A stretch of DNA of 64,000 nucleotides, taken from assembly GCA_041660065.1 (NCBI GenBank), contig JBAZXC010000004.1:10098-74097 (forward strand), in the 5' to 3' direction. The first letter of the stretch is position 1. Each line of letters opens with the position of its first letter. A program made the position numbers and the translations under genes. This document shows, piece after piece, positions 4,987 through 63,521 of the stretch. Under the pieces are notes generated by a model. The model was not told the DNA's origin. It saw only the letters and a program-made list of their open reading frames with translations, and searched no databases. Origin of the DNA: Parcubacteria group bacterium. GTDB taxonomy: Bacteria > Patescibacteriota > Minisyncoccia > Moranbacterales > GCA-2747515.

Positions 4987-5349
4987 GTCATCCTGAACTC
5001 GTTTCAGGATCTCATATCCTAAAAAATAAACATGAAACAATATTGTGTGTACATTTTAACAAATTCACGTAAGACAGTTTTATATATTGGTGTCACGAGT
5101 AATTTGCAAAAACGTGTACATGAGCATAAAAGTAAGCTTGTTGATGGTTTTACAAAAAAATATAATGTTGATAGATTGGTTTATTTTGAACAAACTGAAG
5201 ATGTTTTGAGTGCATTGAGAAGAGAAAAACAATTAAAAAATTGGCATAGGGGGTGGAAAAACAATTTGATATCGCAATTTAATCCAGATTGGAGTGATTT
5301 GACGAGTTCTATTATTTAGCTGAGATCCTGAAACGAGTTCAGGATGACA
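4987..5349. mobile_element. GIY-YIG nuclease cassette bounded by perfect 29-bp hairpin inverted repeats
   Basis: Left 4987-5015 TGTCATCCTGAACTCGTTTCAGGATCTCA; right 5321-5349 is its exact reverse complement; the cargo is the GIY-YIG ORF; a cargo-less copy of the repeat pair sits at 32850-32911. Confidence 0.55.
5032..5319 (+). CDS. GIY-YIG family nuclease (small, URI-domain only)
   Basis: 95 aa: YCVYILTNSRKTVLYIGVTSNLQKRVHEH ... KQLKNW matches the GIY-YIG motif set (GVY-YIG, R, E, N). Confidence 0.75.
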   Translation: MKQYCVYILTNSRKTVLYIGVTSNLQKRVHEHKSKLVDGFTKKYNVDRLVYFEQTEDVLSALRREKQLKNWHRGWKNNLISQFNPDWSDLTSSII

Positions 5350-7803: not shown

Positions 7804-9591
7804 TTATTTTTTAATATTCAATATGACGTAGAAATCACTTCCTTCTCCAAGTGTACTTGCTACGTAAATATCGCCACCGAGTTGCGTGATCAATTTTTTT
7901 GCAATTGGGAGACCCAAGCCGGAACCTCCGGATATACGCTTCATATGCCCCCCAACCTGTTTGAATTTTTTGAAAATATCATGTAAATCTTCTGTTGCAA
8001 TACCAATGCCGTTGTCTTTAACGTGTATTTCAATTCTATCAGAATCAAGTTTTTTCGTAAAAATTTCTATTTTGCCGATGTCAGGTTTTGTGAATTTGAT
8101 GGCATTATCGATCAAATTGATGATGATACGTCGCAATTGAGTTGGGTCTGTCATAATGCGCACATGAGGATTTGTCGCGTGGAATATAAGGGCTTTGTTT
8201 TCTGTGGCACAGCGCATACGAAAATCGCTGTAAGTTTTTTCGATCAAGTCACTGAGGTTCACATCCTCAATATCAAATTGCATTTTTCCAGACTCCAATT
8301 TTTCCAGATCAAGCATGTTTGACACCATTTCCAACAGTTTATCCGTGTTATTGATGATTTTTTCTGTGTAATTTTTTTGTGTCTCATTTACTTCACCAAA
8401 CATTCCGTTCAATAACATCGATGCAAAGCCCTTAATGATCGTAAGGGGCGTCCTGAGTTCATGTGAGGTGATCGAGATGATCTCATTCTTCATTTTATCA
8501 ACCTTCTTTAACTCCTTGTAGGATTTCTGCATGTTTTCACGGAGTTTTCTTTTCTCTGTGATATTTTCTACGGAGGCGTCAAAATATAAAGCATTTTTTC
8601 CTGGAATGATCTTCCCATATATTTTTATCCAGAGAGCGTTATTTTTGAATGTCAATATCTCGAGTTCCTCTCCTATAACCTCATGTTTTTTTAAAAGTAA
8701 GTTTTTGAATTTTTCTTTTTCATCCTTGTTCTTGAAAAAATCAATAAAGTCAAAATCTGGTTTTTGCAGATGTTTCTTATCGGGGATTTCCAAGAGTTCG
8801 AGAAGGGCATTATTCCATAGAAGCGGTGGGGCGGGCTTATCCATGCGGATGCGAAACATACCAATTGGCAGGTGTTGGATCAATGACACAAACTCAGATT
8901 TTAAAAGGTTTTTTTGCTCCTCAATTTTTGATCCAACTCTAAGGATGAAGGCGAGTAATCCGATCAAAAGGATTAAAATCAAAAGAATGATCCCAATGAT
9001 GCGCCACATGATCGTAACAATCTCTTTTTGAACATCATCGATATACATTCCTGTGCCAATCAGCCATCCCCATGGTTTAAATACGGTCACATGAGATAGC
9101 TTCGGCACTGCGATCGAAGTGTCACCGTGTTTTGGCATCCACATATATTTTACATAGCCCTCCTCGTCATTTCTTGCCATAGCAAGCATAACGGCGCCAA
9201 AGTTGTAGCCGTTTTCATCGGAGAGGTTTTCCAAGTTGGTGCCACGTACCGTGTCGTATGGATGGATAAAAATAATGCCGTCATTGACATTATTTACCCA
9301 AAAATAGTCATCGCCATTTTTGCCGTAACGATAATTGCTGATGATCTCTGTGGCGATTTTTTTTGCTTCTTCCTCATCTAACTCGCCGGAAATAACTCTG
9401 TCATTGAGATTATTCAGTGTTGCAATCAACAGACTTGACATTTCATGGAGCATGTACTGTTTTTCGCTCATGAGAGACTGATTGATGCGGGGAATGATAT
9501 AAAATGCAAACGCGGATGTGGTAAAAATCACAAAAAGCACTGTGATAAATGCGACTTTGCCGAATGTTGTGCTGAGCATTTTTTTGAACAT
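7804..9591 (-). CDS. sensor histidine kinase with extracytoplasmic Cache-like sensor
   Basis: 595 aa; an N-terminal TM, a periplasmic sensor of about 150 aa, a second TM, an H-box SHELRTPLT, and HATPase motifs DNGIGI / GGSGLGL. Confidence 0.8.
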   Translation of the reverse strand: MFKKMLSTTFGKVAFITVLFVIFTTSAFAFYIIPRINQSLMSEKQYMLHEMSSLLIATLNNLNDRVISGELDEEEAKKIATEIISNYRYGKNGDDYFWVNNVNDGIIFIHPYDTVRGTNLENLSDENGYNFGAVMLAMARNDEEGYVKYMWMPKHGDTSIAVPKLSHVTVFKPWGWLIGTGMYIDDVQKEIVTIMWRIIGIILLILILLIGLLAFILRVGSKIEEQKNLLKSEFVSLIQHLPIGMFRIRMDKPAPPLLWNNALLELLEIPDKKHLQKPDFDFIDFFKNKDEKEKFKNLLLKKHEVIGEELEILTFKNNALWIKIYGKIIPGKNALYFDASVENITEKRKLRENMQKSYKELKKVDKMKNEIISITSHELRTPLTIIKGFASMLLNGMFGEVNETQKNYTEKIINNTDKLLEMVSNMLDLEKLESGKMQFDIEDVNLSDLIEKTYSDFRMRCATENKALIFHATNPHVRIMTDPTQLRRIIINLIDNAIKFTKPDIGKIEIFTKKLDSDRIEIHVKDNGIGIATEDLHDIFKKFKQVGGHMKRISGGSGLGLPIAKKLITQLGGDIYVASTLGEGSDFYVILNIKK

Positions 9592-36454: not shown

Positions 36455-36934
36455 GTGATCGATGTGGATGGCCAAACGGTTGTAACAAACGTGCAGGACG
36501 GCATCATGCGGTTTCGTTGTGTGATGTGTCGTCACGAGGCGGATGTTGCTGTAAAGAGTGGCGTACGAAAATTAAGAGTGCGATGTAAGTGTGGTTTTGT
36601 CATTGTATGCGAGATCGACCGGCGGACAAGTCGACGGGGTCCGTACAAATTTGGCACTGCACAATATGTGTCAAAAAGTGGCACAAAACATATCATTCAA
36701 CCATTTGATATTTCATTTGGTGGCATGGGTTTTTGTTTTTTGCAGGGTGCAAAGCGCCAGCTTTTAGTTGGGCAAAACATCATTATTCAGTATGAAGTGA
36801 GTAGAGGATGTGACACAGTAGATGATTTTGTCGTGCGGAGAGTGTGGGATGATTGGATCGGTGTGCAATATGCTGATGGAATGAATCACCCACCACGACA
36901 TCGGCTGATCATACCATTACAGCAACATAAATAA
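36455..36934 (+). CDS. Zn-ribbon + PilZ domain protein (paralog 1)
   Basis: 159 aa; CVMCRH-x17-CKCG zinc ribbon, then PilZ motifs RRTSRRG (RxxxR) and DISFGGMGF (DxSxxG). Confidence 0.6.
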   Translation: MIDVDGQTVVTNVQDGIMRFRCVMCRHEADVAVKSGVRKLRVRCKCGFVIVCEIDRRTSRRGPYKFGTAQYVSKSGTKHIIQPFDISFGGMGFCFLQGAKRQLLVGQNIIIQYEVSRGCDTVDDFVVRRVWDDWIGVQYADGMNHPPRHRLIIPLQQHK

Positions 36935-37392: not shown

Positions 37393-37666
37393 AAAAAGAT
37401 CGATGAAAACAATCTCTTGGAGAGCTCTCCGAGAGATTTTTTTATAGTCATATACGTGCAATTATTTGGACAAAGCATATTTATTGATTTTTGGTATTGT
37501 AAAAAGTACTGTATTTTAAAATAGAAAAACCAATGAGACATGACCTCTTTTTCTAAATGATGTATTTTTTTGACAGAAAAGGTGTTTTTACATACAATGA
37601 ATAATCACAATGTTATGGGTGTTTGTTATTTGACAATAAAAATTTTCCAATTATATATGGGGTGCG

Positions 37667-49443: not shown

Positions 49444-49528
49444 GGTGAGGTGGCCGAGTGGTTGAAGGCGCACGCTTGGAAAGCGTGTTAGGGGCAACTC
49501 TACGCAGGTTCGAATCCTGTCCTCACCG
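49444..49528 (+). tRNA. tRNA-Ser (anticodon GGA)
   Basis: Cloverleaf: acceptor GGTGAGG/CCTCACC, anticodon loop cTTGGAAa, long variable arm, T-loop GGTTCGAATCC; no encoded CCA. Confidence 0.8.
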
Positions 49529-49530
49529 CC

Positions 49531-49640
49531 CTGTACCGTACGGTACAGGGCTCCGCCAGAAATAAAAAACGGAGTCAAATATCGTACGAAAAAACAGTCC
49601 TACGCCATACGATACAGGACTGTTTTTGTATGGGGAAGAA
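49531..49640. repeat. cassette-boundary repeat, partial (central hairpin CCCTGTACCGTACGGTACAGGG + right arm)
   Basis: Lies immediately 3' of tRNA-Ser(GGA); shares the hairpin and a CTGTTTTTGTATGGGGAAGAATAGACGTTGAAATTTTTTTG arm with the repeats at 55931, 56861, 58450 and 62503. Confidence 0.6.
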
Positions 49641-49725
49641 TAGACGTTGAAATTTTTTTGCTGTGAATTATGATAGACAATTCACTTAAATATGCTACGA
49701 TGAGCTTACAAATTAATGGTTTTTC

Positions 49726-52602: not shown

Positions 52603-52694
52603 TGGAGAGGTGCCAGAGTGGTCGAATGGGACTGACTCGAAATCAGTTGTCTCGTTTTAACGGGACCCAGGGTTCGAATCCCTGCCTCTCCGCC
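52603..52694 (+). tRNA. tRNA-Ser (anticodon CGA)
   Basis: Acceptor GGAGAGG/CCTCTCC, anticodon loop aCTCGAAa, long variable arm, T-loop GGTTCGAATCC, encoded CCA. Confidence 0.75.
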
Positions 52695-52702
52695 AACAAG
52701 AA

Positions 52703-52750
52703 ATCTTATTATCATGCAAATGATAGTGGGATTTTTTGATTGGAGAAGGG
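52703..52750. repeat. about 46-bp direct repeat, copy 1 (AATCTTATTATCATGCAAATGATAGTGGGATTTTTTGATTGGAGAAGG)
   Basis: Near-identical to 63252-63297 (AATCCTATTATCATGTAAATGACAATGGGATTTTTTGATTGGAGATG); the two copies bracket about 10.5 kb of accessory genes next to tRNA-Ser(CGA). Confidence 0.6.
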
Positions 52751-52868
52751 AGGGATTCGAACATGGAAAGGGGTCGGGAAAACGATAGTTTCCCCGTGGT
52801 GGAAGTATTGAAACCGCAAGGTGTCAAAGAGCGAAGCGACGTGAGATTCCCTGCCTCTCCGCAAATAA
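52743..52868. other. tRNA-like fragment / att-type duplication of tRNA-Ser 3' end
   Basis: GGAGAAGGGAGGGATTCGAAC resembles the reverse complement of a tRNA T-arm and acceptor stem, and GAGATTCCCTGCCTCTCCGCA repeats the 3' end of tRNA-Ser(CGA); it does not fold as a complete canonical tRNA by eye. Confidence 0.4.
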
Positions 52869-53055
52869 TCTCTTATTTTTTATAATGCGAAATTTTCTGA
52901 GTGGAGTAGAGTGATTCGATCTGACGATGCTATAAGTGAAGTTTGTAAAATTGTAACTCGAAAAAATTGAAATAAAAATAAAAAACTCCCGAGATTCTCG
53001 GGAGGTTTATTTGTTTAATCTCCAGTCACTGTTTGATGACAATAATTATTGATTA

Positions 53056-54132
53056 TTATTCCAATGGAAGCATTTTTAGTGTCTGCAAAGATTTGCTTTT
53101 GGAAACGATACCAAGTTTTTTGAGAAACAGCATCAAGATTGAGCTTGTTAGAAAAATAAGAACAACTGGCGTTCGAACTGCTGCAAGCAAATCCCAAATG
53201 GCACTAAGAGTTCCTGATTTGCCATAGAAAGGCCAGCCGATGATGATGCACATTGCCATGAACATCCCTGCGATTTTACTGTTTTTCTCACTAAATCCGA
53301 TTTTTTCGGATATAAAATTAAGTCCAGAAACACCCGAATCAATTGAACTTACGGCAAGTGAAATCATTAGAATAAGAAACATGATTCCAAGATAGAGATT
53401 ATCGTTGAAATAAAATGCGACAATCATAACAAAAAACATGTAAATTGCAAACCATGCACATGCCCACATTCCAGTAGGAATCATTCTTTCTTCTTTGATT
53501 GCTGAGAGTTTTTGATGGTGGTGAGCGTGGGTGAGTGAGCCAATGATGATGCCTGAGAAATTGAATAGCGCAATCATCTTCCAGTCAACGCCTTTTGATA
53601 GGACGATATTATTCATAGTGCCGTCATTTGTTACAAATGCAGTTATTGCCATTGCAATGATAGCTGTTATCTGACCTATATAGGCTCCAATATCAGTTAT
53701 CATTAGAAATCGAAGTCCTCCAAATTTTACATAGAAAATTGTAATAGATGCAAATGCTACAATCAGCCATGTTGCTGTTTCTTTACTCACAAAGACATAT
53801 GTGGCAAATTTTTCATGACCTCCGGTAAGTGCTACCATCAATCCTTTCATATTTATGTTGATGGTGAGAAATGCTAGGAATGTAAAAAGTAGTAGCATCG
53901 GAATATAGTTCCCCCAGTTTTTACTGGAAGGAACATGTCGTCGAATAAATGCGGTGAGTGGGATAGCCAGACAATTGCCCACAATCCATGCAATTGCAGG
54001 AAGAAATCCTTCTGCATACATTTTGGACATTCCAACCACAATGGAAAAGCCCCAAGACCAATCAGCTGCCAGAGACATTCCTACACGCCAATTAGGAAAA
54101 TTTTCGATGTCATCAATATTCACGTTTCTCAT
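53056..54132 (-). CDS. polytopic membrane transporter (about 12 TM), family uncertain
   Basis: 358 aa, the only minus-strand gene in the accessory array; hydrophobic throughout; HAHHHQ loop. Confidence 0.55.
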   Translation of the reverse strand: MRNVNIDDIENFPNWRVGMSLAADWSWGFSIVVGMSKMYAEGFLPAIAWIVGNCLAIPLTAFIRRHVPSSKNWGNYIPMLLLFTFLAFLTININMKGLMVALTGGHEKFATYVFVSKETATWLIVAFASITIFYVKFGGLRFLMITDIGAYIGQITAIIAMAITAFVTNDGTMNNIVLSKGVDWKMIALFNFSGIIIGSLTHAHHHQKLSAIKEERMIPTGMWACAWFAIYMFFVMIVAFYFNDNLYLGIMFLILMISLAVSSIDSGVSGLNFISEKIGFSEKNSKIAGMFMAMCIIIGWPFYGKSGTLSAIWDLLAAVRTPVVLIFLTSSILMLFLKKLGIVSKSKSLQTLKMLPLE

Positions 54133-54389
54133 GATTCACTCCTTATCTTCTGAGGTTGGTTCAAATTTTAAAAGTACACTAAAATAAAATTAATGATCTC
54201 TATGCAAAGATCAGTTCAATATTGCATATTTTTGATAAATTGTCAAGAGAATAAGTTGTTGTGGATGTTGACAAAGTTTATTTATTATGATATTAATTAA
54301 CATTCGAGTTCCTTAACAAAAAGAGCTTGAGTTTTGATGGGGGAGGCACATTTCTATTCAGTGGATTTAAAAACTATTGAGCGCATAAA

Positions 54390-55748
54390 GTGAAGGAGGT
54401 TGATTTCATGAAAACATGTTTAGATTTTAAGAGAGCGTTGGTGGAGAGTGGCCTGATGGATTTTGCAGAGGAAACATCCTTGGCAGTTTGGTTGGGTGAC
54501 GGCATGAAGATGCTTCGAATTTTGGAGAGAAAGATTATAGAGCTTTTTGAACTGCAGGGTTATGAAGAGGGACGTTTCCCGCTCTTAGCTCACAGAAGTC
54601 ATTTCAACAAGCTTTGTATGGAAATTTGCAATTTTGATGGAGGTGTTTTTTGCATTGAAGGAAAAAGTGACTTACTTCTGCGACCCTCTGGTGAAATTGT
54701 GTTTTATCCTCTTTTTGCAAAGTGGTCAAAAAAAAGAGGTCTTCCTCTAAGGTTTTTTTCCATTGGACAAATGTTTCGTCAAGGATCTGCTCAAAAGATA
54801 TTTCGTCAGTGTGAGAATGATATGTTTGTAGAAGGACATGCCTCATTTAAAAATGCAGGAGAGGCGCATATTGAAGTAGATCGTCTTAATGATATTTTGA
54901 GGAGTTGGTTTTCCATTCTTTCACTTCCAGTCTTGATCGTGGACCGTCCAGGTGAAACAAATAAGCCTGTGGCAGAAAGGCACATTGGTTTTGATGGCAT
55001 TTTGCCAACGGGGGAGACCATTCTTCTTGGCGCCTCGTATTATCAAGGACAAATTTTTTCTCGTGTCTTTAATATTAAAAATCGAGACACTGCAGATTTT
55101 GCATATCAGGCGGAAGCAGGATTTTCATCCAGAGCGATCCTAGCATCTCTATGGGTGCATGCGGACAAAAAAGGATTGGTATTGCCGAGTAGTTTTGCTC
55201 CTATTCAAGTGGCAATCATTCCTAGCAGTAAAGATGCTGGCATGCTTTTGCAGGCAGAGAAAATAAAAAAAGATCTCAATGTGGCTGGAATTCGAGTAAG
55301 GATTCAAATCCCAGAACGAAATAAAAGAGTCTTTTATCAGAATTTGGAGATATCCGGCTATCCGGTAGTAATTCGATTGAATGAAACAGACACTTGTCAA
55401 GTTTACTATCGTTTTGATGATCGATGTGATAGTGATCCAAAAAATCTTTTATTGGAAGTGAGTGAATACTTGAAAAATTTGGACGGCAGAATTCTGAGAA
55501 AAGCAGTGGATGCTCATATTTCCAAGATGATTTTTGTTTGCGAAGATGCAAGAATAATCATTGATGTCCTTAATAGTCAAAAAGTAGCTCAGATATTCCT
55601 CTGTAGTGAATCTACCTGTTTGCATGGAGTTAAAACCAGCGTTGGTCGAGGTGAGATGATTGGTTGGGATTATTCTAGTCAAGAGCGGGGTGCGTGTATT
55701 CAATGCGGAAAGGAAGGTAGACGTGCATATTATGCTAGAAGAATCTAG
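54390..55748 (+). CDS. archaeal/eukaryote-type prolyl-tRNA synthetase homolog with substituted motif 2
   Basis: 452 aa colinear with class IIa ProRS: LLLRPSGE, motif-2 region GQMFRQGSAQKIFRQCENDMFVEGH (the canonical FRxE is altered to FRQG), motif-3-like GFSSR, anticodon-binding domain APIQVAIIPS, and a C-terminal Zn motif CIQCGKEGRRAYYARRI. Confidence 0.65.
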   Translation: MKEVDFMKTCLDFKRALVESGLMDFAEETSLAVWLGDGMKMLRILERKIIELFELQGYEEGRFPLLAHRSHFNKLCMEICNFDGGVFCIEGKSDLLLRPSGEIVFYPLFAKWSKKRGLPLRFFSIGQMFRQGSAQKIFRQCENDMFVEGHASFKNAGEAHIEVDRLNDILRSWFSILSLPVLIVDRPGETNKPVAERHIGFDGILPTGETILLGASYYQGQIFSRVFNIKNRDTADFAYQAEAGFSSRAILASLWVHADKKGLVLPSSFAPIQVAIIPSSKDAGMLLQAEKIKKDLNVAGIRVRIQIPERNKRVFYQNLEISGYPVVIRLNETDTCQVYYRFDDRCDSDPKNLLLEVSEYLKNLDGRILRKAVDAHISKMIFVCEDARIIIDVLNSQKVAQIFLCSESTCLHGVKTSVGRGEMIGWDYSSQERGACIQCGKEGRRAYYARRI

Positions 55749-55930
55749 ATAATAGAAATTGTTTAAATCAAAAAGCCGAGGATGAATTTCATCTGAGGCT
55801 TTTAAATTTTTTATGATGTTCTTTCGATATCCATTTTTGTTAGATATTAAGATGTTTTTTATGAAAGTCCTTCATAGTGAAAAATATTGTAGGAAAATTT
55901 CATCGTTGTTTTTGCAGGTTTTATTAATTA

Positions 55931-56037
55931 TTCATCAAAAACGTTCCAATATTGTCCCACACTCCCCGCCCTGTACCGTACGGTACAGGGCTGTTTTTGT
56001 ATAGTGGGGTATGGACGTGGAACTTTTTGTGATATTC
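55931..56037. repeat. cassette-boundary composite repeat (full copy)
   Basis: Left arm TTCATCAAAAACGTTCCAATATTGTCCCACACTCCCCG, hairpin CCCTGTACCGTACGGTACAGGG, right arm CTGTTTTTGTATAGTGGGGTATGGACGTGGAACTTTTTGTGATAT; the arms are imperfect inverted repeats of each other. Confidence 0.7.
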
Positions 56038-56059
56038 TTATTATGAAATTTAAAAATAT

Positions 56060-56854
56060 ATGATTATTGATACGCACGTACATATCTCACTTTTTGAGAA
56101 TAATGCAAAAAATTTAAAAGAAGCATTTGAAATTCTTTTAAATGATATGCAAAAATACAATATTGAACGAGCGATCATTGTTCCAGATAATATTGAAAAC
56201 AGTGATCAAATAGCAGATTTGGAAAAAGCGATTGAATTGATTGGAGACAAAAAGAATTTCTATTTTCTTGGCAGTCCGCAGATTATTCAACGTGGATCAA
56301 GTGAGTTAGAAAAATATCAAAAATTGATAAAAGAGAAAAAAATCGTTGGTCTCAAATTTTTTCCAGGTCATGATCCATATTATCCGACAGATGAAAGATG
56401 TGTGCCGTATTACAAATTATGCCAAGATCTTGAGGTGCCTGTGCTGTTTCACACTGGCGAAAATACAGGAAACAGTGAATGCGCACAGTGGAATGATCCA
56501 AAATATATTGTGGAGATCACAAAGGAATTTCCACGATTGAAAGTCATTATCACGCATTATTTTTGGCCACGAATGGACTATTGTTATGAATTGACCAAAA
56601 ACGTTCCAAATATCTATTTTGAAACTGCGGCTATGGCTGATGAGGAAGTTGTGGAAAAAAGTGGTGGCATTGGAAAAGTGAGAGAAATATTACATAAAAC
56701 TATCGTGGATAGACCTGCTAAGGTTATTTTTGGCACAGATTGGCCAATGTGCAAGATTGAAGAACATATCAATTTGATAAGATCACTGGGTCTTGAAAAG
56801 GAAATTGAGGAGAAGATATTTAGCAGTAATGCAGTCAAGATTTACAATATTTGA
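56060..56854 (+). CDS. amidohydrolase-2 family metal-dependent hydrolase (TIM barrel)
   Basis: 264 aa; IIDTHVHI at the N-terminus, and internal His and Asp ligands (FGTDWP). Confidence 0.7.
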   Translation: MIIDTHVHISLFENNAKNLKEAFEILLNDMQKYNIERAIIVPDNIENSDQIADLEKAIELIGDKKNFYFLGSPQIIQRGSSELEKYQKLIKEKKIVGLKFFPGHDPYYPTDERCVPYYKLCQDLEVPVLFHTGENTGNSECAQWNDPKYIVEITKEFPRLKVIITHYFWPRMDYCYELTKNVPNIYFETAAMADEEVVEKSGGIGKVREILHKTIVDRPAKVIFGTDWPMCKIEEHINLIRSLGLEKEIEEKIFSSNAVKIYNI

Positions 56855-56860
56855 TAATTT

Positions 56861-56966
56861 CTCATCAAAAACGTTCCAACATCGTCCCACACTCCCCGCC
56901 CTGTACCGTACGGTACAGGGCTGTTTTTGAATAAGGAGGTAGGGATGTGGAACTTTTTGTGATATG
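56861..56966. repeat. cassette-boundary composite repeat (full copy)
   Basis: CTCATCAAAAACGTTCCAACATCGTCCCACACTCCCCG + CCCTGTACCGTACGGTACAGGG + CTGTTTTTGAATAAGGAGGTAGGGATGTGGAACTTTTTGTGATATG. Confidence 0.7.
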
Positions 56967-57082
56967 ATAATCGTATAAATTGAAATCATTTATCTAGGAC
57001 CGTCCTAGTTATATATTTCGAGGTTTTTATTCCCTGTAGAGCGTGTATTGACACAAATACGCTCTACAGGTAAGATAGCAAT

Positions 57083-58054
57083 ATGAAAGCAACATTATCT
57101 AATTCCGATTATTTACGTAATTTTGACCGCTTTATCAGCAGTTTAGATTTTTCTGATCCTGATAATCTTCGTATTTATTCTCATCCAAAGTGGATCAATG
57201 TGCATCCTGCTGTTTTAGCTTTAATTGTAGAAATGGCGATGCGGGCAGGTAAGCAGAATGTTACGTTTGAAAATATTACAGCAACTTCCGGTTCGTATCT
57301 TGATCGTATGGGGCTTTTTGAATTCACACATCAAAAGTCACCATATACTATTAACAAGAAAGAAGAATCGGGAAGATTTATACCCGTCACGATTATCAAA
57401 AATTCTACCGAGCAGTCAAAATTTATTACTGACATGATTCCTCTTTTGCATTTACCTGCTGATAAAACGGATGCTATTAAATATACGATTGGGGAACTGC
57501 TTCGTAATGTATTGGAACACTCAGGAAGTACGCATGGAGCGATTGTTGCGGCTCAATACTATAAAAAATCAAACACAATTCGTATTGGTATTTGTGATGG
57601 CGGTATTGGTATTAAAAAGAGTCTGCAACACTATTGGGCTTCTCGGTCAAAGACAGATATAGCTGCAATCAAATGGGCAATGGTACCCGGTATTTCGGGG
57701 ACAACACGAAAAGAAGGCGGAACAGAAGATAATGCTGGTGCCGGATTATTTTTCATTAAATCTATCGCGCAAGTAGCACGTAACTATTTCATGATTTACA
57801 GTGGATCCGGTATTTATAAACTACTACTTCACGATAAGAGAATAGAGAAACCACGGCTCCATTCCGATCCGGATGACGATCGTCATTCTGAACGCGACGA
57901 CGCCCCTTATTTTCAAGGGACATTGGTGGCAATAGATTTATCCCTTGAAAATAAATCTGAATTTACCCAGCTTCTCTCTGCGATACGAGAAGTTTATGGC
58001 AAGGCGGTTAGGGATCGTAAGCGAAAGAAATATAAAGAACCAAAATTTATATGA
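57083..58054 (+). CDS. GHKL-type ATPase (HATPase_c-like) with N-terminal uncharacterised domain
   Basis: 323 aa; N-box ELLRNVLEHS and G1 box ICDGGIGI; the stop overlaps the next start (ATGA). Confidence 0.6.
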   Translation: MKATLSNSDYLRNFDRFISSLDFSDPDNLRIYSHPKWINVHPAVLALIVEMAMRAGKQNVTFENITATSGSYLDRMGLFEFTHQKSPYTINKKEESGRFIPVTIIKNSTEQSKFITDMIPLLHLPADKTDAIKYTIGELLRNVLEHSGSTHGAIVAAQYYKKSNTIRIGICDGGIGIKKSLQHYWASRSKTDIAAIKWAMVPGISGTTRKEGGTEDNAGAGLFFIKSIAQVARNYFMIYSGSGIYKLLLHDKRIEKPRLHSDPDDDRHSERDDAPYFQGTLVAIDLSLENKSEFTQLLSAIREVYGKAVRDRKRKKYKEPKFI

Positions 58055-58365
58055 GTAAAATAATTAAGATTAAGGATCTTGTCGGTGATTTTGCAGAAAA
58101 TAAAGACGTGGCAAAAGATTTACGTGTCACCGATATTATGCCGACCTTGGCAGATGGTCAGGAGGTCATATTGGATTTTTCTGGAGTTAGCGGTACAACT
58201 CAATCATTTATTCACGCCTTGATCTCTGAACCAATTCGGCGGTTTCGTGATGTAGCTTTGGAAAAGATACACTACAAAAATTGTTCTGATGTTGTAAAAG
58301 AAGTTATTAAAACGGTGTCTGAATATATGCAGGAAAGTCTTGATTCGGAAAATTATGAAAAATAA
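58051..58365 (+). CDS. STAS-like small protein (DUF4325-like partner of the GHKL ATPase)
   Basis: 104 aa; translationally coupled to the ATPase; ...EVILDFSGVSGTTQSFIHALI... resembles the STAS-like DUF4325. Confidence 0.45.
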   Translation: MSKIIKIKDLVGDFAENKDVAKDLRVTDIMPTLADGQEVILDFSGVSGTTQSFIHALISEPIRRFRDVALEKIHYKNCSDVVKEVIKTVSEYMQESLDSENYEK

Positions 58366-58449
58366 TAACGATAGATGCAATTTAGTTGTAGAAAATCCGC
58401 AAAGCACTGTGGATGCTGAATAATTGGGGTCAGGCACCTTTTATCCAGG

Positions 58450-58498
58450 GGCTGTTTTTGTATAGAGAGGTAGGGACGTGTGGAACTTTTTATGATAT
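58450..58498. repeat. cassette-boundary repeat, right arm only
   Basis: GGCTGTTTTTGTATAGAGAGGTAGGGACGTGTGGAACTTTTTATGATAT. Confidence 0.6.
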
Positions 58499-58524
58499 GC
58501 TGAAAGCATATTTTATATAAATTT

Positions 58525-59196
58525 ATGTCAGCAAATATCATAAAACACTTTATTGAAACAAGAGATTTTAATTACGGATCAGTGAAAGAAAAGCTCAATG
58601 AAATCATGGATGAGCATACAAAAAAGGCGTGTGTAATGTTAAATATCAACCTTGTTAATATCATTATATGGCCAAATAGTGATGCAGTGATACCGGAAAC
58701 AGGCGAAGGTGGCCAAGTATGGTCAAAAGAACTTGTTATGATTTATATTGATCCAAGTCGTTCTGTCGCAGAACTTCAAAAGATCATTGAAACACAAATT
58801 CCAGCAACAATCTATCACGAATTAAATCATATTGCTAGGGGAAATTTTTTAAGCAAAGAAGAACTTGGTTTCCATCATAATTTATCAAAAGCAGTAATCT
58901 CAGAGGGTATCGCGTCCTATTTTGCACATGAAAAATGGTCGCAAGCTCAAATGCCATGGACAAAATACTCGGAAACAGAAATACAAGATCTTTTGAGCAT
59001 TTATTTAAGCAGAGATATTTCTGATGATGACCAATATGACCATGAAAAATGGTTTTATGGCACGGGTGATCTCCCACGATGGATCGGCTATAAATTGGGA
59101 TATTATTTCGTTGAACGTTATAAGAAACAAAATCCAAATGTTTCATGGAGCGATATTATAAAACTAAAAGATCATGAGTTCATGAAAACTGTGTAA
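58525..59196 (+). CDS. putative Zn-dependent protease (HExxH; DUF2268-like)
   Basis: 223 aa; the HELNHIARG zinc-binding motif is in a soluble protein. Confidence 0.5.
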   Translation: MSANIIKHFIETRDFNYGSVKEKLNEIMDEHTKKACVMLNINLVNIIIWPNSDAVIPETGEGGQVWSKELVMIYIDPSRSVAELQKIIETQIPATIYHELNHIARGNFLSKEELGFHHNLSKAVISEGIASYFAHEKWSQAQMPWTKYSETEIQDLLSIYLSRDISDDDQYDHEKWFYGTGDLPRWIGYKLGYYFVERYKKQNPNVSWSDIIKLKDHEFMKTV

Positions 59197-59207
59197 ATCA
59201 TATTTTT

Positions 59208-59278
59208 TCATCAAAAAAGTTCCAACGTCGTCCCACTCCTTGTAAAGGAAATCACGCAATTTACTGCGTGGTTTTTTT
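59208..59278. repeat. cassette-boundary repeat, left arm + terminator hairpin
   Basis: TTCATCAAAAAAGTTCCAACGTCGTCCCACTCC, then CACGCAatttacTGCGTGGTTTTTTT. Confidence 0.6.
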
Positions 59279-59515
59279 AATTTAATTCTAATCTTGATTG
59301 CAGGTGACAATTCGCAAAAAGCCAAGTATGGTAGAAAATGGGATTTTCTGCCTAAAGTTGCGAAAACTTACTGAACGGGAGTATACTGTAAATAATTCGT
59401 AAACTTTATAATATGTCGAATATAAAAATAAATCATGGAAGAAAATTATCTAAATTGAAAGATGAAAATATGTGGAGTATAAAATTTTGAATTTATCATA
59501 ATTAATGAATCGCAT

Positions 59516-59926
59516 ATGAAACAGTATAGTATTTTTATAAGTCATTCATGGGCTTATGGCGAAAACTATAATAGGCTCATCAAAATGCTTAATAATGATC
59601 CCTATTTTCATTTTAAAGATTATTCTGTTCCAAAGCATGATCCCATTCATAATGCTCCAAATCAACTTCTTTTAAAGCAAGCGATTGCAAATCAAATAAG
59701 ATTTTGTGATGTCGTAATAATATTAGCGGGTGTTTATTCAACATATAGCAAGTGGATCAATATTGAAATTGACATTGCTAAGAATGGCTTTCAATATCCA
59801 AAATCTATTCTTGCAATTGAGCCTTGGGCTAGTGAAAAAACATCACAAATTGTCAAGAAAAATGCCGATAAAATAGTTAGGTGGCAAACATGTTCAATTG
59901 TTGATGCAATAAAAGGATTAGCCTAA
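59516..59926 (+). CDS. TIR-like domain protein (DUF1863/ThsB-like)
   Basis: 136 aa; YSIFISHSWAYGENY...CDVVIILAGVYSTYSKWINIEIDIA fits the bacterial TIR-like pattern (FIShS ... S.W...E); AT-rich (about 30% GC); 12 nt upstream of the next gene. Confidence 0.5.
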   Translation: MKQYSIFISHSWAYGENYNRLIKMLNNDPYFHFKDYSVPKHDPIHNAPNQLLLKQAIANQIRFCDVVIILAGVYSTYSKWINIEIDIAKNGFQYPKSILAIEPWASEKTSQIVKKNADKIVRWQTCSIVDAIKGLA

Positions 59927-59938
59927 ATCATAATCTTT

Positions 59939-60466
59939 ATGGATATTAAAAAATTGGAAGAAAAACTATTTGTTTCGAAGAATGAAAATTATGGAGATAA
60001 ATATATAGAACACTTATTGGAACAATATAAGGTTTATATTGACTCTGCAGAAAAAATAAGTGATCGTAGACAAAAATCAAATGAATTTTTTCTTGCTTTA
60101 AATAGTAGCTTGGTTGCATTATTGGGATATATACTTGCGAAAAATAGTGATTCAGAAATAGTAAGCTTGTTCATTCTATCTTCTATTTCAGGGATCGTAT
60201 TATGTTATTTTTGGTATAGAATTATTTATTCTTATAAATGTTTAAATAGTGGAAAATTCAAAGTTATTCACATGATTGAAAGACGATTACCACTAGCGCT
60301 TTATGACACAGAATGGGAAATATTGGAAAGAGGAAAAAACAAGAAAGTTTACTGGCCGTTCTCGCATATTGAGCTCATGGTCCCTTGGATATTTATTATT
60401 ATTTATATAACCATTTTATTTCTCAACCTATGTCCAAAAATAGGAGCGTTGATATGTGCAATGTAA
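59939..60466 (+). CDS. small 3-TM protein, SLATT-like candidate effector (paralog 1)
   Basis: 175 aa; an N-terminal amphipathic helix, two closely spaced TM helices (FFLALNSSLVALLGYIL / IVSLFILSSISGIVLCYFWY), a soluble loop and a C-terminal TM; overlaps the next gene by 11 nt. Confidence 0.5.
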   Translation: MDIKKLEEKLFVSKNENYGDKYIEHLLEQYKVYIDSAEKISDRRQKSNEFFLALNSSLVALLGYILAKNSDSEIVSLFILSSISGIVLCYFWYRIIYSYKCLNSGKFKVIHMIERRLPLALYDTEWEILERGKNKKVYWPFSHIELMVPWIFIIIYITILFLNLCPKIGALICAM

Positions 60467-61001
60467 ATGGAGGATAAATATGAAAAAAGAAAAAAACATA
60501 GAATTAATTTATTCTGAGGTAAAAGAGAGATTAAATAGGCAGATAGATTCCATAGATCAGGTGGCAGTTAAATTTAATTTTTTACTTGCGCTTAATAGTA
60601 TAATATTGGCTTCACTCTTACAATCTAACCTTTTAGGATCTCGAAAGGAATGTATTTCATGGATGATGTTTTTTGCAGTAGTGTGCTTTTTTTTATCAAT
60701 CCTATTTGACTTGAGAGGGCTAGTTATGCAAAAGTATAGACGAGATCCTGATCCACAAAAACTTTATGAAGGATATTTCAACAAATCAAAGCAATATACT
60801 CAAGAAGTCTTAATCATTAATTACGTGCATGCTTTCAATGAAAATGTGAAAAAATTACATCATGTTAACAAATTTTTTGCTTATTCAATATTTTCTTCCT
60901 CTATTGCTTTAATATTTGTTTTTATAAATTTAATTAATCCTAATTTAATTTTCATATGGAAAATGATAATAAAGATGATGTGTCAGATATGCCAAAGTTA
61001 G
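60456..61001 (+). CDS. small 3-TM protein, SLATT-like candidate effector (paralog 2)
   Basis: 181 aa; same architecture as the upstream gene; shared LALNS(I/S)(I/L)LAxLL motif. Confidence 0.5.
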   Translation: MQCKWRINMKKEKNIELIYSEVKERLNRQIDSIDQVAVKFNFLLALNSIILASLLQSNLLGSRKECISWMMFFAVVCFFLSILFDLRGLVMQKYRRDPDPQKLYEGYFNKSKQYTQEVLIINYVHAFNENVKKLHHVNKFFAYSIFSSSIALIFVFINLINPNLIFIWKMIIKMMCQICQS

Positions 61002-61127
61002 AAACTGAAGATGAAACGCCAAAATTTGATCCGAAACTAGTTAGCTATGAGGAAAAGGGTTATGATCCACATAGTAAAAATGTAAAGAATTTTTCGAAAA
61101 AGGACGACAGTGAATAGTTGTATATAA

Positions 61128-61598
61128 ATGACAATCCTAAAAAAATCATATTTGAAGAACAAGGATGAAGATCTGATTCATCTTCGAGCAATAAAATTTG
61201 GGATGAATTTTCCTAATGGTTTTATGTATGAACATTTTAAGAAGCGATACGAAACACATAGAGTGAATGATTGGAAAATTGTTGATGAATTTTTGCAAGA
61301 AGCATATAATAATAAAAATGGAACTTCTAACCGAATCACTCCATTTGTTTTGCTTGAGAGAGGGCCAAATGGGAACGCAGATACTTCAAAATATATATTG
61401 AGTTATGAGGCATATTTTAATTATTTGGCATATCGAAATGCAAAGAGGACTATTTGGATTGGTGTCGGAGCAATAATAGTTAGCGTAGTATTGTCTTTAT
61501 TAACTTTTATTGATAATACATATGAAGACAACAATAATAAAAAAGATGAAAGATATCACTATCAAAATATTTTCAGAGGCTCGCAAAATTGCAAATGA
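61128..61598 (+). CDS. hypothetical protein with C-terminal TM
   Basis: 156 aa; AT-rich; no motif. Confidence 0.45.
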   Translation: MTILKKSYLKNKDEDLIHLRAIKFGMNFPNGFMYEHFKKRYETHRVNDWKIVDEFLQEAYNNKNGTSNRITPFVLLERGPNGNADTSKYILSYEAYFNYLAYRNAKRTIWIGVGAIIVSVVLSLLTFIDNTYEDNNNKKDERYHYQNIFRGSQNCK

Positions 61599-61655
61599 AA
61601 AAATGAATCAAATATAGTGTTATTAATTAGAAATTTGACAGAAAATATCGTTTGT

Positions 61656-61745
61656 TATCAAAAAAGTTCCAACATCGTCCCACACTCCCCGCACAGATTT
61701 TAAGTCCAAGATAATGGGACTTTTTGATGGGGAAGTTTGTCATTT
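61656..61745. repeat. cassette-boundary composite repeat (variant)
   Basis: TATCAAAAAAGTTCCAACATCGTCCCACACTCCCCG, hairpin AAGTCCaagataatgGGACTT, then TTTTGATGGGGAAGTTTGTCAT. Confidence 0.65.
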
Positions 61746-61766
61746 TTAAACAAGGTCATATAATGA

Positions 61767-62465
61767 ATGCATAAACATAATAAGGCATGCATCATGGATA
61801 AGGCAATAGAGAAAAAACCAACTGCACTAGATGTTAAACTAAAGAAAAAACTTGACTTACTTCGACGTTATTGGTTTGCATACAAGCGAGCGCATCATGC
61901 CCTTTTAGGGGAAATTGAAGAAAACCAAATACTCTTACAGTTTCATGAGTGTAGAAAATTTAATACTTGGCAATTAAATGAGGCATTATATAGATACGCT
62001 GAATCTTCGATAAGTGCTCTATTTTGGTTGTTTCCAGATATGAAATACAAGGATTATCCTTTTGTACACAAATTCTTGAGGAAGTGGCGTAATGGAAATC
62101 AGCATGATGAACGAACGGATTTTTTTCTAAATGATGGAGGTTTTCAATATAATAATAAGAGGCATGATTTACCCTTAGGGTATAATGTGCTTCCCGTTTT
62201 CAATCTAAATAAAGAACTAAAAAAAGTTGTGAAATCACAGTTTGGTTCGGATAAAATTGCAACGGATGCAACAGTGGTGGAATTGGTTAAAAATCATCAT
62301 ATATTTATGGTTAAAAAATTTAATGAATATGAAGCAAATCTAAATAAAGAATTGCCAAAGAAATATTTGCAATCAATTGTGCAGGAACACATGACGATGT
62401 ATGGGGGAGTGCATGATGAGTTTGTTTCGGAAGATGATTTTTGGAAAGGAGAAATTAATAAATAA
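61767..62465 (+). CDS. hypothetical protein
   Basis: 232 aa, soluble and basic; no motif. Confidence 0.45.
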   Translation: MHKHNKACIMDKAIEKKPTALDVKLKKKLDLLRRYWFAYKRAHHALLGEIEENQILLQFHECRKFNTWQLNEALYRYAESSISALFWLFPDMKYKDYPFVHKFLRKWRNGNQHDERTDFFLNDGGFQYNNKRHDLPLGYNVLPVFNLNKELKKVVKSQFGSDKIATDATVVELVKNHHIFMVKKFNEYEANLNKELPKKYLQSIVQEHMTMYGGVHDEFVSEDDFWKGEINK

Positions 62466-62502
62466 TAATCATTTTACTTTTGATAAAATGATACTGTTTT
62501 AT

Positions 62503-62628
62503 TCATCAAAAAAGTTATAACATCATCCCACACTCTCCACCAGTTGCTTGCGAAGAAGATTTAGAACAGCTCGTTTTTACGGGCTGTTTTTGTATGGGGA
62601 GATAGAGATGTTGATTTTTTTGTGATAC
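62503..62628. repeat. cassette-boundary composite repeat (full copy, divergent hairpin)
   Basis: TTCATCAAAAAAGTTATAACATCATCCCACACTCTCC, variable hairpin region ...CAGCTCGTTTTTACGGGCTG, then TTTTTGTATGGGGAGATAGAGATGTTGATTTTTTTGTGATAC. Confidence 0.65.
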
Positions 62629-62665
62629 AGTTAAAATAATAGTTAATTTTATTAACGTAAACCAT

Positions 62666-63175
62666 ATGAAAAAAATAATATACTTTTTTATTGCTGGATT
62701 TATAATTGGACTGCTAATTTCTCCTGTAGCTGGAATGGCAAATAGCGTTACGAGGAACTTGATTTTGGGGATGGCTTCTGATGTAACTATTTTGGCAATG
62801 GCGGATAAAGTTAACGATAACAAAAATTCAGATGAGCAACTTAATACAAAGATATCGGATCTTCAATCTATTGTTGATAATCAGAAAACAGAACTTGCAA
62901 ATTGTCAGCAGCAAATAGATTTACAGAGTGCAAAAATAGAGGAATCAGATTTGAAAAACGAAGGAACGCAAATTAAAATAAATAATGAAGTCGAATGTAG
63001 AAAATTGTATTCAGATAATCAAGAATGTAACACGCCGTCTTTTAGGAGTGAATTAGATTTTAATAGAATGATTGAGTCATACAAAGAGGGAATGCCAGAT
63101 AAATGGAAATCTTATAGGGATGAAAAGCTTATTGTATTTAAAAAGTGTCAAGAAATTATTAAAGAATGCGGATAA
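62666..63175 (+). CDS. secreted/membrane-anchored coiled-coil protein, hypothetical
   Basis: 169 aa; signal anchor, Gln/Asn-rich coiled-coil, 4 Cys at the C-terminus. Confidence 0.45.
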   Translation: MKKIIYFFIAGFIIGLLISPVAGMANSVTRNLILGMASDVTILAMADKVNDNKNSDEQLNTKISDLQSIVDNQKTELANCQQQIDLQSAKIEESDLKNEGTQIKINNEVECRKLYSDNQECNTPSFRSELDFNRMIESYKEGMPDKWKSYRDEKLIVFKKCQEIIKECG

Positions 63176-63180
63176 TAAAC

Positions 63181-63297
63181 CAAAAAATCTCCACCATCGT
63201 CATGTATCATGCGATGCATGACGCAGTCTCACACTCCCCGCTAACAGAAAATCCTATTATCATGTAAATGACAATGGGATTTTTTGATTGGAGATGA
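63181..63297. repeat. cassette-boundary composite repeat (variant) overlapping copy 2 of the 46-bp direct repeat
   Basis: ...CCACCATCGTCatgtatcatgcgatgcatGACgcagtCTCACACTCCCCG ... AATCCTATTATCATGTAAATGACAATGGGATTTTTTGATTGGAGATG. Confidence 0.6.
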
Positions 63298-63521
63298 ATA
63301 TAATGGCTTTTTGTACTATACTTAGTCTAAGTAATATGTATAAAATATTGATTATGGAAAAGATCAGGGTGGAACAACATGGATTCACTGCTTTTTCGTG
63401 GTTTGCCGGATGGCTTTTTACTATTGGATTTCTCCAGCTGACATTTTGGAAGGGCGTGTTGGCAATTTTGTTATGGCCATACTATATCGGCGTGGCGATC
63501 AGTCATGTGCTCGTTCAGTAA
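63288..63521 (+). CDS. small 2-TM membrane protein, hypothetical
   Basis: 77 aa with two hydrophobic helices. Confidence 0.35.
   Translation: MEMNIMAFCTILSLSNMYKILIMEKIRVEQHGFTAFSWFAGWLFTIGFLQLTFWKGVLAILLWPYYIGVAISHVLVQ

Follow-up and report, generated by a model that had tools for sequence, protein, structure and literature searches.

We examined a repeat at 55931–56037 in a 64,000-nt stretch of DNA from a Parcubacteria group bacterium (contig JBAZXC010000004.1, positions 10,098 to 74,097; hereafter, the window), whose arms a preliminary description had likened to the 3′ end of a neighboring tRNA-Ser gene. The repeats are probably attachment sites of a mobile-element family that encodes a large serine recombinase (LSR) and inserts at the 3′ ends of tRNA-Ser genes, with sister variants using tRNA-Gln and tRNA-Asp. 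Patescibacteria have tiny genomes, and to our knowledge few mobile elements have been recognized in them and no genetic tools exist. If correct, this reading would define a widespread family with a rolling-circle Rep and an LSR (thousands of homologs), a 33-nt attP arm, and tRNA-Ser, tRNA-Gln, and tRNA-Asp ends as targets. It would explain the origin of at least some variable, defense-rich islands of Patescibacteria, supply a candidate integrase and att pair for engineering these bacteria, and illustrate naturally, on a tRNA target, the 5-bp attP/attB rule derived from phage serine integrases.

A conserved 33-nt site behind tRNA genes

The repeat proved to be real. It is built from a left arm (L; AAAAAaGTTCCAACATCGTCCCACACTCCCCGC in the window), a variable intrinsic terminator, and, in some copies, a right arm (R), which is an imperfect inverted copy of L terminating in TTTTTGTGATA. 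Both arms were located in further copies. L copies start at 55937, 56867, 59213, 61660, and 62508, with an interrupted copy at 63182, and R copies start at 55999, 56929, 58461, and 62593. All strong copies of the repeat in the 64-kb window are confined to a single strand of one 7.4-kb stretch behind a tRNA gene. A weak additional L-like sequence (GATCCAATCATCCCACACTCTCCGC) lies at 36835–36859 on the minus strand, 27 nt past the end of the open reading frame (ORF) at 37461–36886 (minus), in surroundings of lower GC (0.38) and with no tRNA nearby.

Using the 23-nt pattern AAAAMGTTCCAAYRTYGTCCCAC, we identified 17 genome loci and 39 metagenome loci, and a profile of L then detected about 85 distinct copies at 46 non-redundant loci in public data. 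L is a 33-nt site composed of AAAAAGTTCCAACATCGTCCCAC and a tail, and in a logo of 82 copies the information is confined to aAAAAaGTTCCAACATCGTCCCAC.CtccCcGCa. The sequence is identical in kind in Microgenomates-type and Parcubacteria-type genomes. Copies at one locus are always on the same strand, and 20 loci contain two to six of them at a spacing of 0.3–2.9 kb. The elements are found directly downstream of a tRNA gene, in the same orientation, and leave the tRNA intact. The nearest upstream same-strand tRNA, present in 19 loci, is tRNA-Ser in 10, tRNA-Gln in 5, tRNA-Asp in 3, and tRNA-Ala in 1, so that Ser, Gln, and Asp make up 18 of 19 anchors versus 1 of 13 among the other tRNAs of the same loci (Fisher, 7e-7). 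The tail of L, its last 8–9 nt, varies with the anchor of the array: ACGGyCCGC behind tRNA-Asp, ACwGCCAGCA behind tRNA-Gln, and nCTCyCCGC behind tRNA-Ser. The 8-nt tail fits its own tRNA better than permuted tRNAs (0 of 20,000 permutations), and a core of 8–15 nt (..TCCCACnCTCyCCGC) is common to the element borders and the tRNA end.

The sequences enclosed by these sites behave as discrete, reshuffled modules. Homology between related arrays begins at the first nucleotide after ..CCGC and stops at the next ..CCGC. One reverse-transcriptase module (93–100% identical) has three different next neighbors, in L008/L165, L003/L140, and L139 (loci are designated by L and a number), and L008 and L153 have a common L, terminator, and following module preceded by differing upstream sequence. 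Because the homology blocks break at ..CCGC and the neighbors vary, exchange takes place at L. Modules are as small as 0.3–1 kb. The Moraniibacteriota metagenome-assembled genome locus L015 is syntenic with the window, sharing an ABC transporter operon (67–79% amino acid identity) followed by tRNA-Ser(CGA), and the modules behind that tRNA differ from those of the window; this synteny marks the window as Moraniibacteriota-like.

A wider distribution was not upheld. L007 and L008 (CAYMGT010000009.1) are labeled Gammaproteobacteria and L005 and L010 (DYDB01000002/3) Micavibrio, which had suggested a spread across phyla. We withdrew that suggestion, as these loci look Patescibacterial: their GC content is 0.30–0.38, and DnaB and RodA from the same contigs are 74–87% identical to proteins named as Parcubacteria, Patescibacteria, or Moraniibacteriota. 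The labels are probably binning errors or mislabeling, to judge from these protein comparisons. Our check of taxon labels covered the Gammaproteobacteria and Micavibrio loci; a further locus, L013, is labeled Bdellovibrionales. Since the two labels that were checked belong to AT-rich contigs with DnaB and RodA closest to Patescibacteria, we treat the L family as Patescibacterial. The specific 23-nt pattern had no match in viral contigs. The string GTTCCAAYRTYGTCCCAS matched more than 120 viral contigs, all in an unrelated GC-rich coding gene, and was rejected. A literature search with the motif string found no paper.

Recombinase elements at the tRNA end

The preliminary description had proposed a search for cognate integrases elsewhere, and these were found in relatives, none being present in the window. 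In L008, tRNA-Ser(GGA) faces a convergent gene for a protein of 500–550 aa that combines Resolvase, Recombinase, and zinc-ribbon domains, and the ORF of this protein enters the tRNA. We examined the LSR context in eight further loci. A convergent tRNA-Ser directly adjoins the LSR gene in L008, L178, L180, L182, and L186, as does tRNA-Gln in L185; the 3′ end of the LSR gene overlaps tRNA-Ser in L178, L180, L182, and L186. A recombinase of this domain composition lies beside the site in L008, L178, L180, L182, L185, L186, and L187. The LSR family comprises 3335 homologs at E ≤ 1e-20, with source names including Patescibacteria, Magasanikbacteria, Falkowbacteria, Pacebacteria, and Moranbacteria. 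Rep (PF23343) adjoins the LSR in L178, L180, L181, L182, L185, and L187, and tblastn added L005 and L008. At the opposite end of the element is L, 7.3 kb away in L008 and 5.4–6.3 kb away in L178, L180, and L187. Weaker L-like sites are found at the far end in L181 and L182, and the layout of L005 is that of L008 and L178 in the sequence examined, which ends before the tRNA side. Canonical L was not found near the LSR relatives of L184, L185, and L186. No phage structural domains were recognized among precomputed Pfam matches for the elements of L178, L180, and L187, which consist of Rep, LSR, and a few ORFs.

The tRNA-side junction (attL) is near-identical in L008, L178, L180, and L182, with tRNA..TCCGC joined to ACTGATrAAAAATCGC, and on the opposite strand ACTGATrAAAAATCGC is the coding sequence of the recombinase C-terminus. 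Far-side junctions (attR) consist of L..CCGC joined to CA.. or to a terminator, and the sequence past L at attR is former tRNA-downstream sequence. We observed that the recombinase ORF crosses the att junction into the tRNA antisense strand, giving a C-terminus of ..SVRRDRDSNPRKV (L008, 6004–7674; L178, 10001–11503; L180; L182; L186), and because the ORF reads across the junction, the recombinase C-terminus must change when the element is excised. Tandem tRNA-Gln copies occur in L185 at about 7858–8031, and the copy adjoining the recombinase element, interrupted by insertions of ~30 and ~20 nt, goes undetected by ARAGORN.

When L and the tRNA end were compared by anchoring both at the right, the inner 15 nt were identical at 10–14 of 15 positions in all seven pairs, which include both tRNAs of the window. 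At offset 0, the outer 9 nt matched at 0 of 9 positions in six pairs and at 1 of 9 in one. The GGGTTCGAA block of the tRNA instead pairs with the AAGTTCCAA block of L at an offset of about +5 (5–7 of 9 positions in the seven pairs), the exception being L180, whose best outer match (5 of 9) is at +4. In serine integrases, the motif contacted by the zinc-ribbon domain lies at positions 16–24 in attP and 11–19 in attB, and the inner positions are common to both (Rutherford et al. 2013, PMC3783163). Since the +5 offset follows this rule, we take L to serve a single recombinase as its attP-type arm, with the tRNA end as the attB-type counterpart. L has a 5-nt insertion relative to the T-arm, cannot fold as a T-arm, and has no 5′ T-stem strand. 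The attP/attB assignment explains the weak ungapped similarity to the tRNA, the strict conservation of a sequence that does not fold as a T-arm, and the tRNA-specific tails. The arms are thus attP arms carried by the element rather than tRNA copies in decay. The loose alignment of the window's left arms with the tRNA-Ser 3′ end on which the preliminary description had relied is no better than shuffled arms (local alignment with the final 30 nt of either tRNA-Ser, z −0.9 to 2.6), an outcome that the preliminary description had named as one that would refute it; the resemblance itself is borne out by comparative anchoring, tail permutation, and right-anchored identity.

From these comparisons, the following mechanism can be proposed. 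An autonomous element of 5–7 kb would carry the LSR as the acting enzyme, the rolling-circle Rep (PF23343), and some cargo. L would constitute the element-side arm and common core of the attachment site, and attP would consist of L and the P′ side of the element, AAAAAGTTCCAACATCGTCCCACCCTCTCCGC followed by ACTGATAAAAAATCGC.., with the crossover, which we infer to fall within ..CTCyCCGC, placed inside ..CTCTCCGC. L would mimic the last 25 nt of the tRNA because a single protein has to bind the two; the inner ~15 nt are near-identical, and a T-loop-like block (GTTCCAAC) lies 5 bp further out, as in attP versus attB half-sites. After integration, the tRNA would be intact as far as ..CCGC and run on into the element as attL, with the LSR gene convergent and reading into the tRNA; at the far end, L would be joined at ..CCGC to the former tRNA-downstream sequence, normally a terminator, as attR. 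Repeated integration at the tRNA, excision via a more distal attR, and re-integration would leave modules stacked and reshuffled, each having the form terminator–(promoter)–genes–L. The window would be one outcome of this process, with at least seven modules (52.87–63.24 kb, of low GC and partly defense-like) behind tRNA-Ser(CGA), no recombinase aboard, and a distal junction (63182–63306) where L is joined to a terminator resembling the one that now follows the tRNA.

The module array of the window

ARAGORN and Rfam detected two tRNA genes in the window, both tRNA-Ser; the tRNA genes, terminators, repeat units, and modules described in this section are annotated on the plus strand. The final ~25 nt of tRNA-Ser(GGA) (49444–49528; Rfam, 61.5 bits) are a candidate attB left half-site. 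Immediately 3′ of its discriminator base is the terminator hairpin T1 (49529–49550), a 22-nt sequence (CCCTGTACCGTACGGTACAGGG) with three exact occurrences, at 49529, 55969, and 56899, and none in 100 shuffles, which confirms the earlier observation that the sequence following tRNA-Ser(GGA) recurs after the flagged arms. With its flanks, the identity covers 31 nt with one mismatch (CTCaCCG.. versus CTCcCCG..) and reaches 7 nt into the tRNA or L tail. For the two junctions of L with T1 (55969 and 56899), the simplest reading is that they are attR junctions that arose at the tRNA-Ser(GGA) site or were exchanged with it, and entry of modules with T1 as their first element into both tRNA-Ser sites also fits. 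A diverged terminator, T2, is found downstream of T1 at 49594–49628; T1 and T2 (49529–49628) are ~65% alike and 43 nt apart, which points to duplication in place or to the collapse of a mini-module. T2 is followed by a right-arm-like inverted arm of the L type (49629–49666; nhmmer right-arm model, E 2e-5) that overlaps a promoter-like TTGAAA-16-TATGAT (promoter scan 10/12) ahead of the ABC transporter operon. The promoter scan gave no overall enrichment (54 sites found versus 53 expected), and single sites are suggestive only.

The second gene, tRNA-Ser(CGA) (52604–52695; ARAGORN and Rfam), is the anchor of the module array, a co-oriented stack of no fewer than seven gene modules (52867–63241). 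Across 52.9–63.3 kb, GC drops from 0.40–0.47 to 0.28–0.39. This low-GC island is flanked by a 61-nt direct repeat of 87% identity (52686–52746 and 63234–63294) that corresponds to the 3′ end of tRNA-Ser(CGA) and its terminator (52697–52738), and the terminator is thus present as an 87% copy at the far end of the island. There, the distal boundary (63234–63306) contains an att core, the copied terminator, and a truncated arm resembling R0, the inverted arm described below.

Module 1 (52867–55969; GC 0.37) contains a membrane ORF, a class II aminoacyl-tRNA-synthetase-like ORF, and L at 55937–55969. The flagged repeat spans 55937–56034 and comprises this L, the T1 hairpin (55969–55990), and R (55999–56034), with a minimum free energy of −44 kcal/mol. 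Module 2 (55970–56899) consists of T1, R, an Amidohydro_2 ORF (56060–56854), and L (56867–56899). Module 3 (56900–58425) has T1, R (56929–56964), a HATPase_c_2 ORF (57083–58054), and a DUF4325 ORF (58051–58365), its L being degenerate or deleted (~58383–58402). Module 4 (58426–59239) comprises a terminator (58426–58460), R (58461–58497), a DUF2268 ORF (58525–59196), and an L with a degenerate tail (59213–59239). Module 5 (59240–61692) has a terminator at 59253–59278, ORFs for a ThsB-like TIR protein, 8xMP, and a PycTM-like protein, two further ORFs, and L at 61660–61692. In Module 6 (61693–62540), a terminator (61702–61726) and partial R (61727–61747) precede an ORF (61767–62465) and L (62508–62540), and a promoter-like TTGTCA-16-TATAAT lies at 61737–61764 (promoter scan 11/12). 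Module 7 (62541–63241) contains a terminator (62566–62592), R (62593–62627), an ORF (62666–63175), and the interrupted L (63182–63241), into which a 26-nt palindrome, CATGTATCATGCGATGCATGACGCAG, is inserted.

The cargo of these modules is diverse, some of it is defense-like, and several ORFs have no match. The synthetase-like ORF (54390–55748) lies within the low-GC island, has weak matches to tRNA-synt_2b (1e-6) and HGTP_anticodon (1e-3), and adjoins the 358-aa membrane ORF (53056–54132, minus), which is without a Pfam match. The ThsB-like TIR, 8xMP octameric membrane protein, and PycTM-like membrane protein are encoded consecutively in one module (59516–61001) and represent a candidate anti-phage operon. 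The HATPase_c_2 and DUF4325 (STAS-like) ORFs overlap by 4 nt (57083–58365), and PADLOC matched the HATPase_c_2 protein to the N-terminal part of DrmA (8.5e-12).

Between tRNA-Ser(CGA) and Module 1 is a unit at 52742–52863 in which an inverted copy (R0) and a direct copy (L2) of the tRNA-Ser(CGA) 3′ arm are separated by 85 nt. The segment 52845–52868 is an 88% direct copy of the tRNA 3′ end (52676–52699), and 52747–52762 is a 94% inverted copy of 52672–52687 within an inverted arm of 52742–52762; the direct arm, L2, occupies 52845–52863. The preliminary description was therefore right that a tRNA-like fragment at 52743–52868 repeats the tRNA-Ser(CGA) 3′ end, and the explanation that would have undone its interpretation, an intron-containing tRNA, does not apply: neither ARAGORN nor the Rfam tRNA model called a tRNA there, with or without an intron, both calling only the two tRNA-Ser genes of the window, and an Rfam scan of 52690–52960 at E ≤ 10 returned nothing relevant beyond spurious hairpin matches. 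Spurious hairpin matches were also all that a scan of the counterpart region of L181 returned. An inverted tRNA-Ser 3′ arm, a spacer, and a direct arm ending in GCA are arranged alike at 52742–52863 in the window, at ~5000–5290 (minus) in L181, and at ~6750–6820 in L005, with spacers of 145 nt and ~25 nt in the other loci. The ends of the R0–85 nt–L2 unit pair like an acceptor/T-stem minihelix, and L181 contains tandem repeats of the unit.

Alternative readings and known systems

Several results weigh against attachment by an LSR at tRNA ends as a full account of the array. Among the window ORFs tested there was no recombinase, tblastn with the LSR, Rep, and ORF264 of relatives found no remnant in the window, and LSR or Rep was undetected in most arrays. 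In L185 and L186, no canonical L occurs in the ~6–9 kb examined upstream of the LSR gene. L copies do not show two inverted half-sites around a central dinucleotide. Past ..CCGC there is no conservation to the right of L over 82 copies, no P′-like sequence in the 36 nt after L in arrays (median z 0.2), and, by eye, no clear dyad symmetry in the reconstructed attP (L plus ACTGAT..). The crossover may lie at any position within the common core. The model does not account for the right arms found in the window lineage, in which R and L are too far apart to make up a canonical LSR site. Since a canonical LSR acts on a pair of half-sites, the integrase-less modules are not evidently LSR substrates on their own; with no P′-like sequence after L and no conserved right half-site, they are not simple products of attP × attB recombination. 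The serial tRNA-targeted integration put forward in the preliminary description is largely borne out. It holds for targeting of the 3′ end, for the core ..CTCyCCGC at every junction, and for stacking in one orientation, and fails, as plain serial attP × attB integration, to account for the integrase-less modules. Two ways in which integrase-less modules might move can be suggested: an integrated element may be excised with a distal attR, take its neighbors along, and later leave them behind (accretion and mobilization), or homologous exchange between units may account for them. The integrase-less trains raise the question of plain accretion or a true cassette system.

The second of these answers is an alternative that we regard as unlikely. 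It holds that, in Patescibacteria of the Moraniibacteriota type, L–terminator–R units are complete symmetric att sites of non-autonomous cassettes, which an LSR encoded on the chromosome or on an episome would capture and shuffle in trans, possibly via hairpins of single-stranded circles generated by the rolling-circle Rep, with tRNA–terminator–inverted tRNA arm as the resident docking site. If true, it would amount to an integron-like cassette system based on a tRNA gene and a serine recombinase, from which the variable defense islands of these reduced genomes would come. Right arms are restricted to the lineage of the window (the window, L015, L181, and L010), where all four arm combinations occur, where the inverted arms lie 75–80 nt from L, and where R overlaps −35-like boxes.

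Another proposal, that L–terminator–R is a single-stranded attC-like hairpin substrate with tRNA–terminator–inverted arm resembling attI, is improbable. In the window, the units form extended hairpins with imperfect pairing (−44 to −55 kcal/mol) and L/R complementarity at z 2.9–4.3, GTTCCAAC and GTTGGAAC resemble R″/R′ boxes by eye, the modules are short, lie in one orientation, and lack an integrase, the arms occur in all four combinations, and the rolling-circle Rep of the element family would yield single-stranded circles. However, the inverted arm is not a general feature of the family, being absent from most members (median z 0.5 over 81 copies), and matches to the right-arm model are limited to the window, L015, and L010. 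Breakpoints are at the end of L rather than in a right-hand box, and the modules appear to have promoter-like and terminator sequences of their own, unlike typical promoterless cassettes. No IntI-type recombinase was seen; IntI with attI and Pc is absent from the head of the array, which is tRNA-Ser(CGA), and the ORFs at 52.7–63.5 kb have other or no Pfam matches.

Equally doubtful is a model without any dedicated recombinase, in which L–terminator–R units are portable insulators and RecA swaps modules through 100–145 nt of shared sequence after DNA uptake. Two units, A and B, share 83% identity across 145 nt, each unit has a terminator, −35/−10-like boxes are found at 49647–49674 and 62611–62640, the window is without a recombinase, and the P′ side is not conserved. 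In most arrays, however, only the 33-nt L is shared, which is short for RecA, the breakpoints at ..CCGC are sharp, and the model predicts neither the covariation of tail and tRNA nor the arrangement of LSR, tRNA, and L in relatives.

Very little probability attaches to the literal version of the preliminary interpretation, in which left arms are displaced host tRNA 3′ ends, duplicated with the identity block by a tyrosine-integrase-like integration and now decaying. The tRNA-Ser(CGA) 3′ end does have a genuine direct copy, at 52845–52868 (88%), the 61-nt repeat of tRNA end and terminator brackets the island, and trains of partial tRNAs are documented for tycheposons. But the same L, which is not tRNA-like, recurs in about 80 copies in very different Patescibacteria, and random decay would not converge on it; the recombinase encoded at the tRNA is of the serine type, and the top Pfam families in a set of 251 ORFs from the loci include neither Phage_integrase nor any recurrent tyrosine recombinase. 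On sequence grounds, the conservation of L largely refutes tRNA-derived scars, L being an element-borne arm with a 5-nt insertion that cannot fold as a T-arm. A genome-wide palindromic repeat of the miniature inverted-repeat transposable element or repetitive extragenic palindrome type, close to tRNA genes by chance, would fit intergenic units of ~107 nt with terminal inverted repeats TCATCAAAAA and TTTTTGTGATA and is scarcely credible given that the strong copies occupy one 7.4-kb, one-strand stretch behind a tRNA, and likewise in other loci.

Among known systems, a characterized precedent for the LSR elements is provided by the filamentous phages phiRSM of Ralstonia, in which a serine recombinase uses an attP core (TGGCGGAGAGGGT) that is identical to the 13 nt at the 3′ terminus of tRNA-Ser(UCG) (Askora et al., reviewed in PMC3816273). 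In both, a serine recombinase inserts a small element, itself replicated by a rolling-circle Rep, where the tRNA-Ser written UCG in phiRSM (anticodon CGA) ends at 3′, and the reverse complement of the phiRSM core, ACCCTCTCCGCCA, is the L tail in L015, L178, and L180, where the core is CCCTCTCCGC(CA), that of the window being CACTCCCCGC. The phiRSM enzyme is small and resolvase-like, whereas the LSR has ~500 aa with Recombinase and zinc-ribbon domains; we saw no phage structural genes, the hosts are Patescibacteria, and arrays of integrase-less modules have not been described for phiRSM. The att sites of the A118/LI integrase (PMC3783163) similarly have an attP-type arm motif 5 bp farther from the center and share the inner ~10–15 bp, and the recombinase gene likewise adjoins the att site. 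Unlike in that system, here only the left half-site is recognizable, with no evident dyad, integration is at a tRNA 3′ end and not in a protein-coding gene, and the recombinase ORF crosses the junction.

Tycheposons and tandem tRNA arrays are tRNA-seeded islands in which older elements are pushed distally (bioRxiv 10.1101/2020.12.28.424599; PMC7192596). They too have repeated att motifs and integrase-less remnants between cargo modules, but they involve tyrosine recombinases and true partial tRNAs, in contrast to the serine recombinase and conserved pseudo-tRNA arm with a +5 spacer seen here, where modules can be as small as 0.3–1 kb. The arrays also resemble the accretion of cis-mobilizable elements (CIMEs). 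The attC sites of integrons, which also occur in clusters lacking an integrase (CALINs), are imperfect palindromes conserved in fold rather than in sequence, with crossover in the right-hand box. The window shares with integrons and CALINs small co-oriented modules, ~100-nt imperfect palindromes between them, an array without an integrase, and partly defensive cargo. It differs in that L is conserved in sequence and not in fold, the palindrome is not family-wide, breakpoints are at the left arm, IntI is absent, and the anchor is a tRNA gene and not attI. The system described here is thus a variant of known tRNA-anchored integrative arrays, with small modules that are possibly integron-like.

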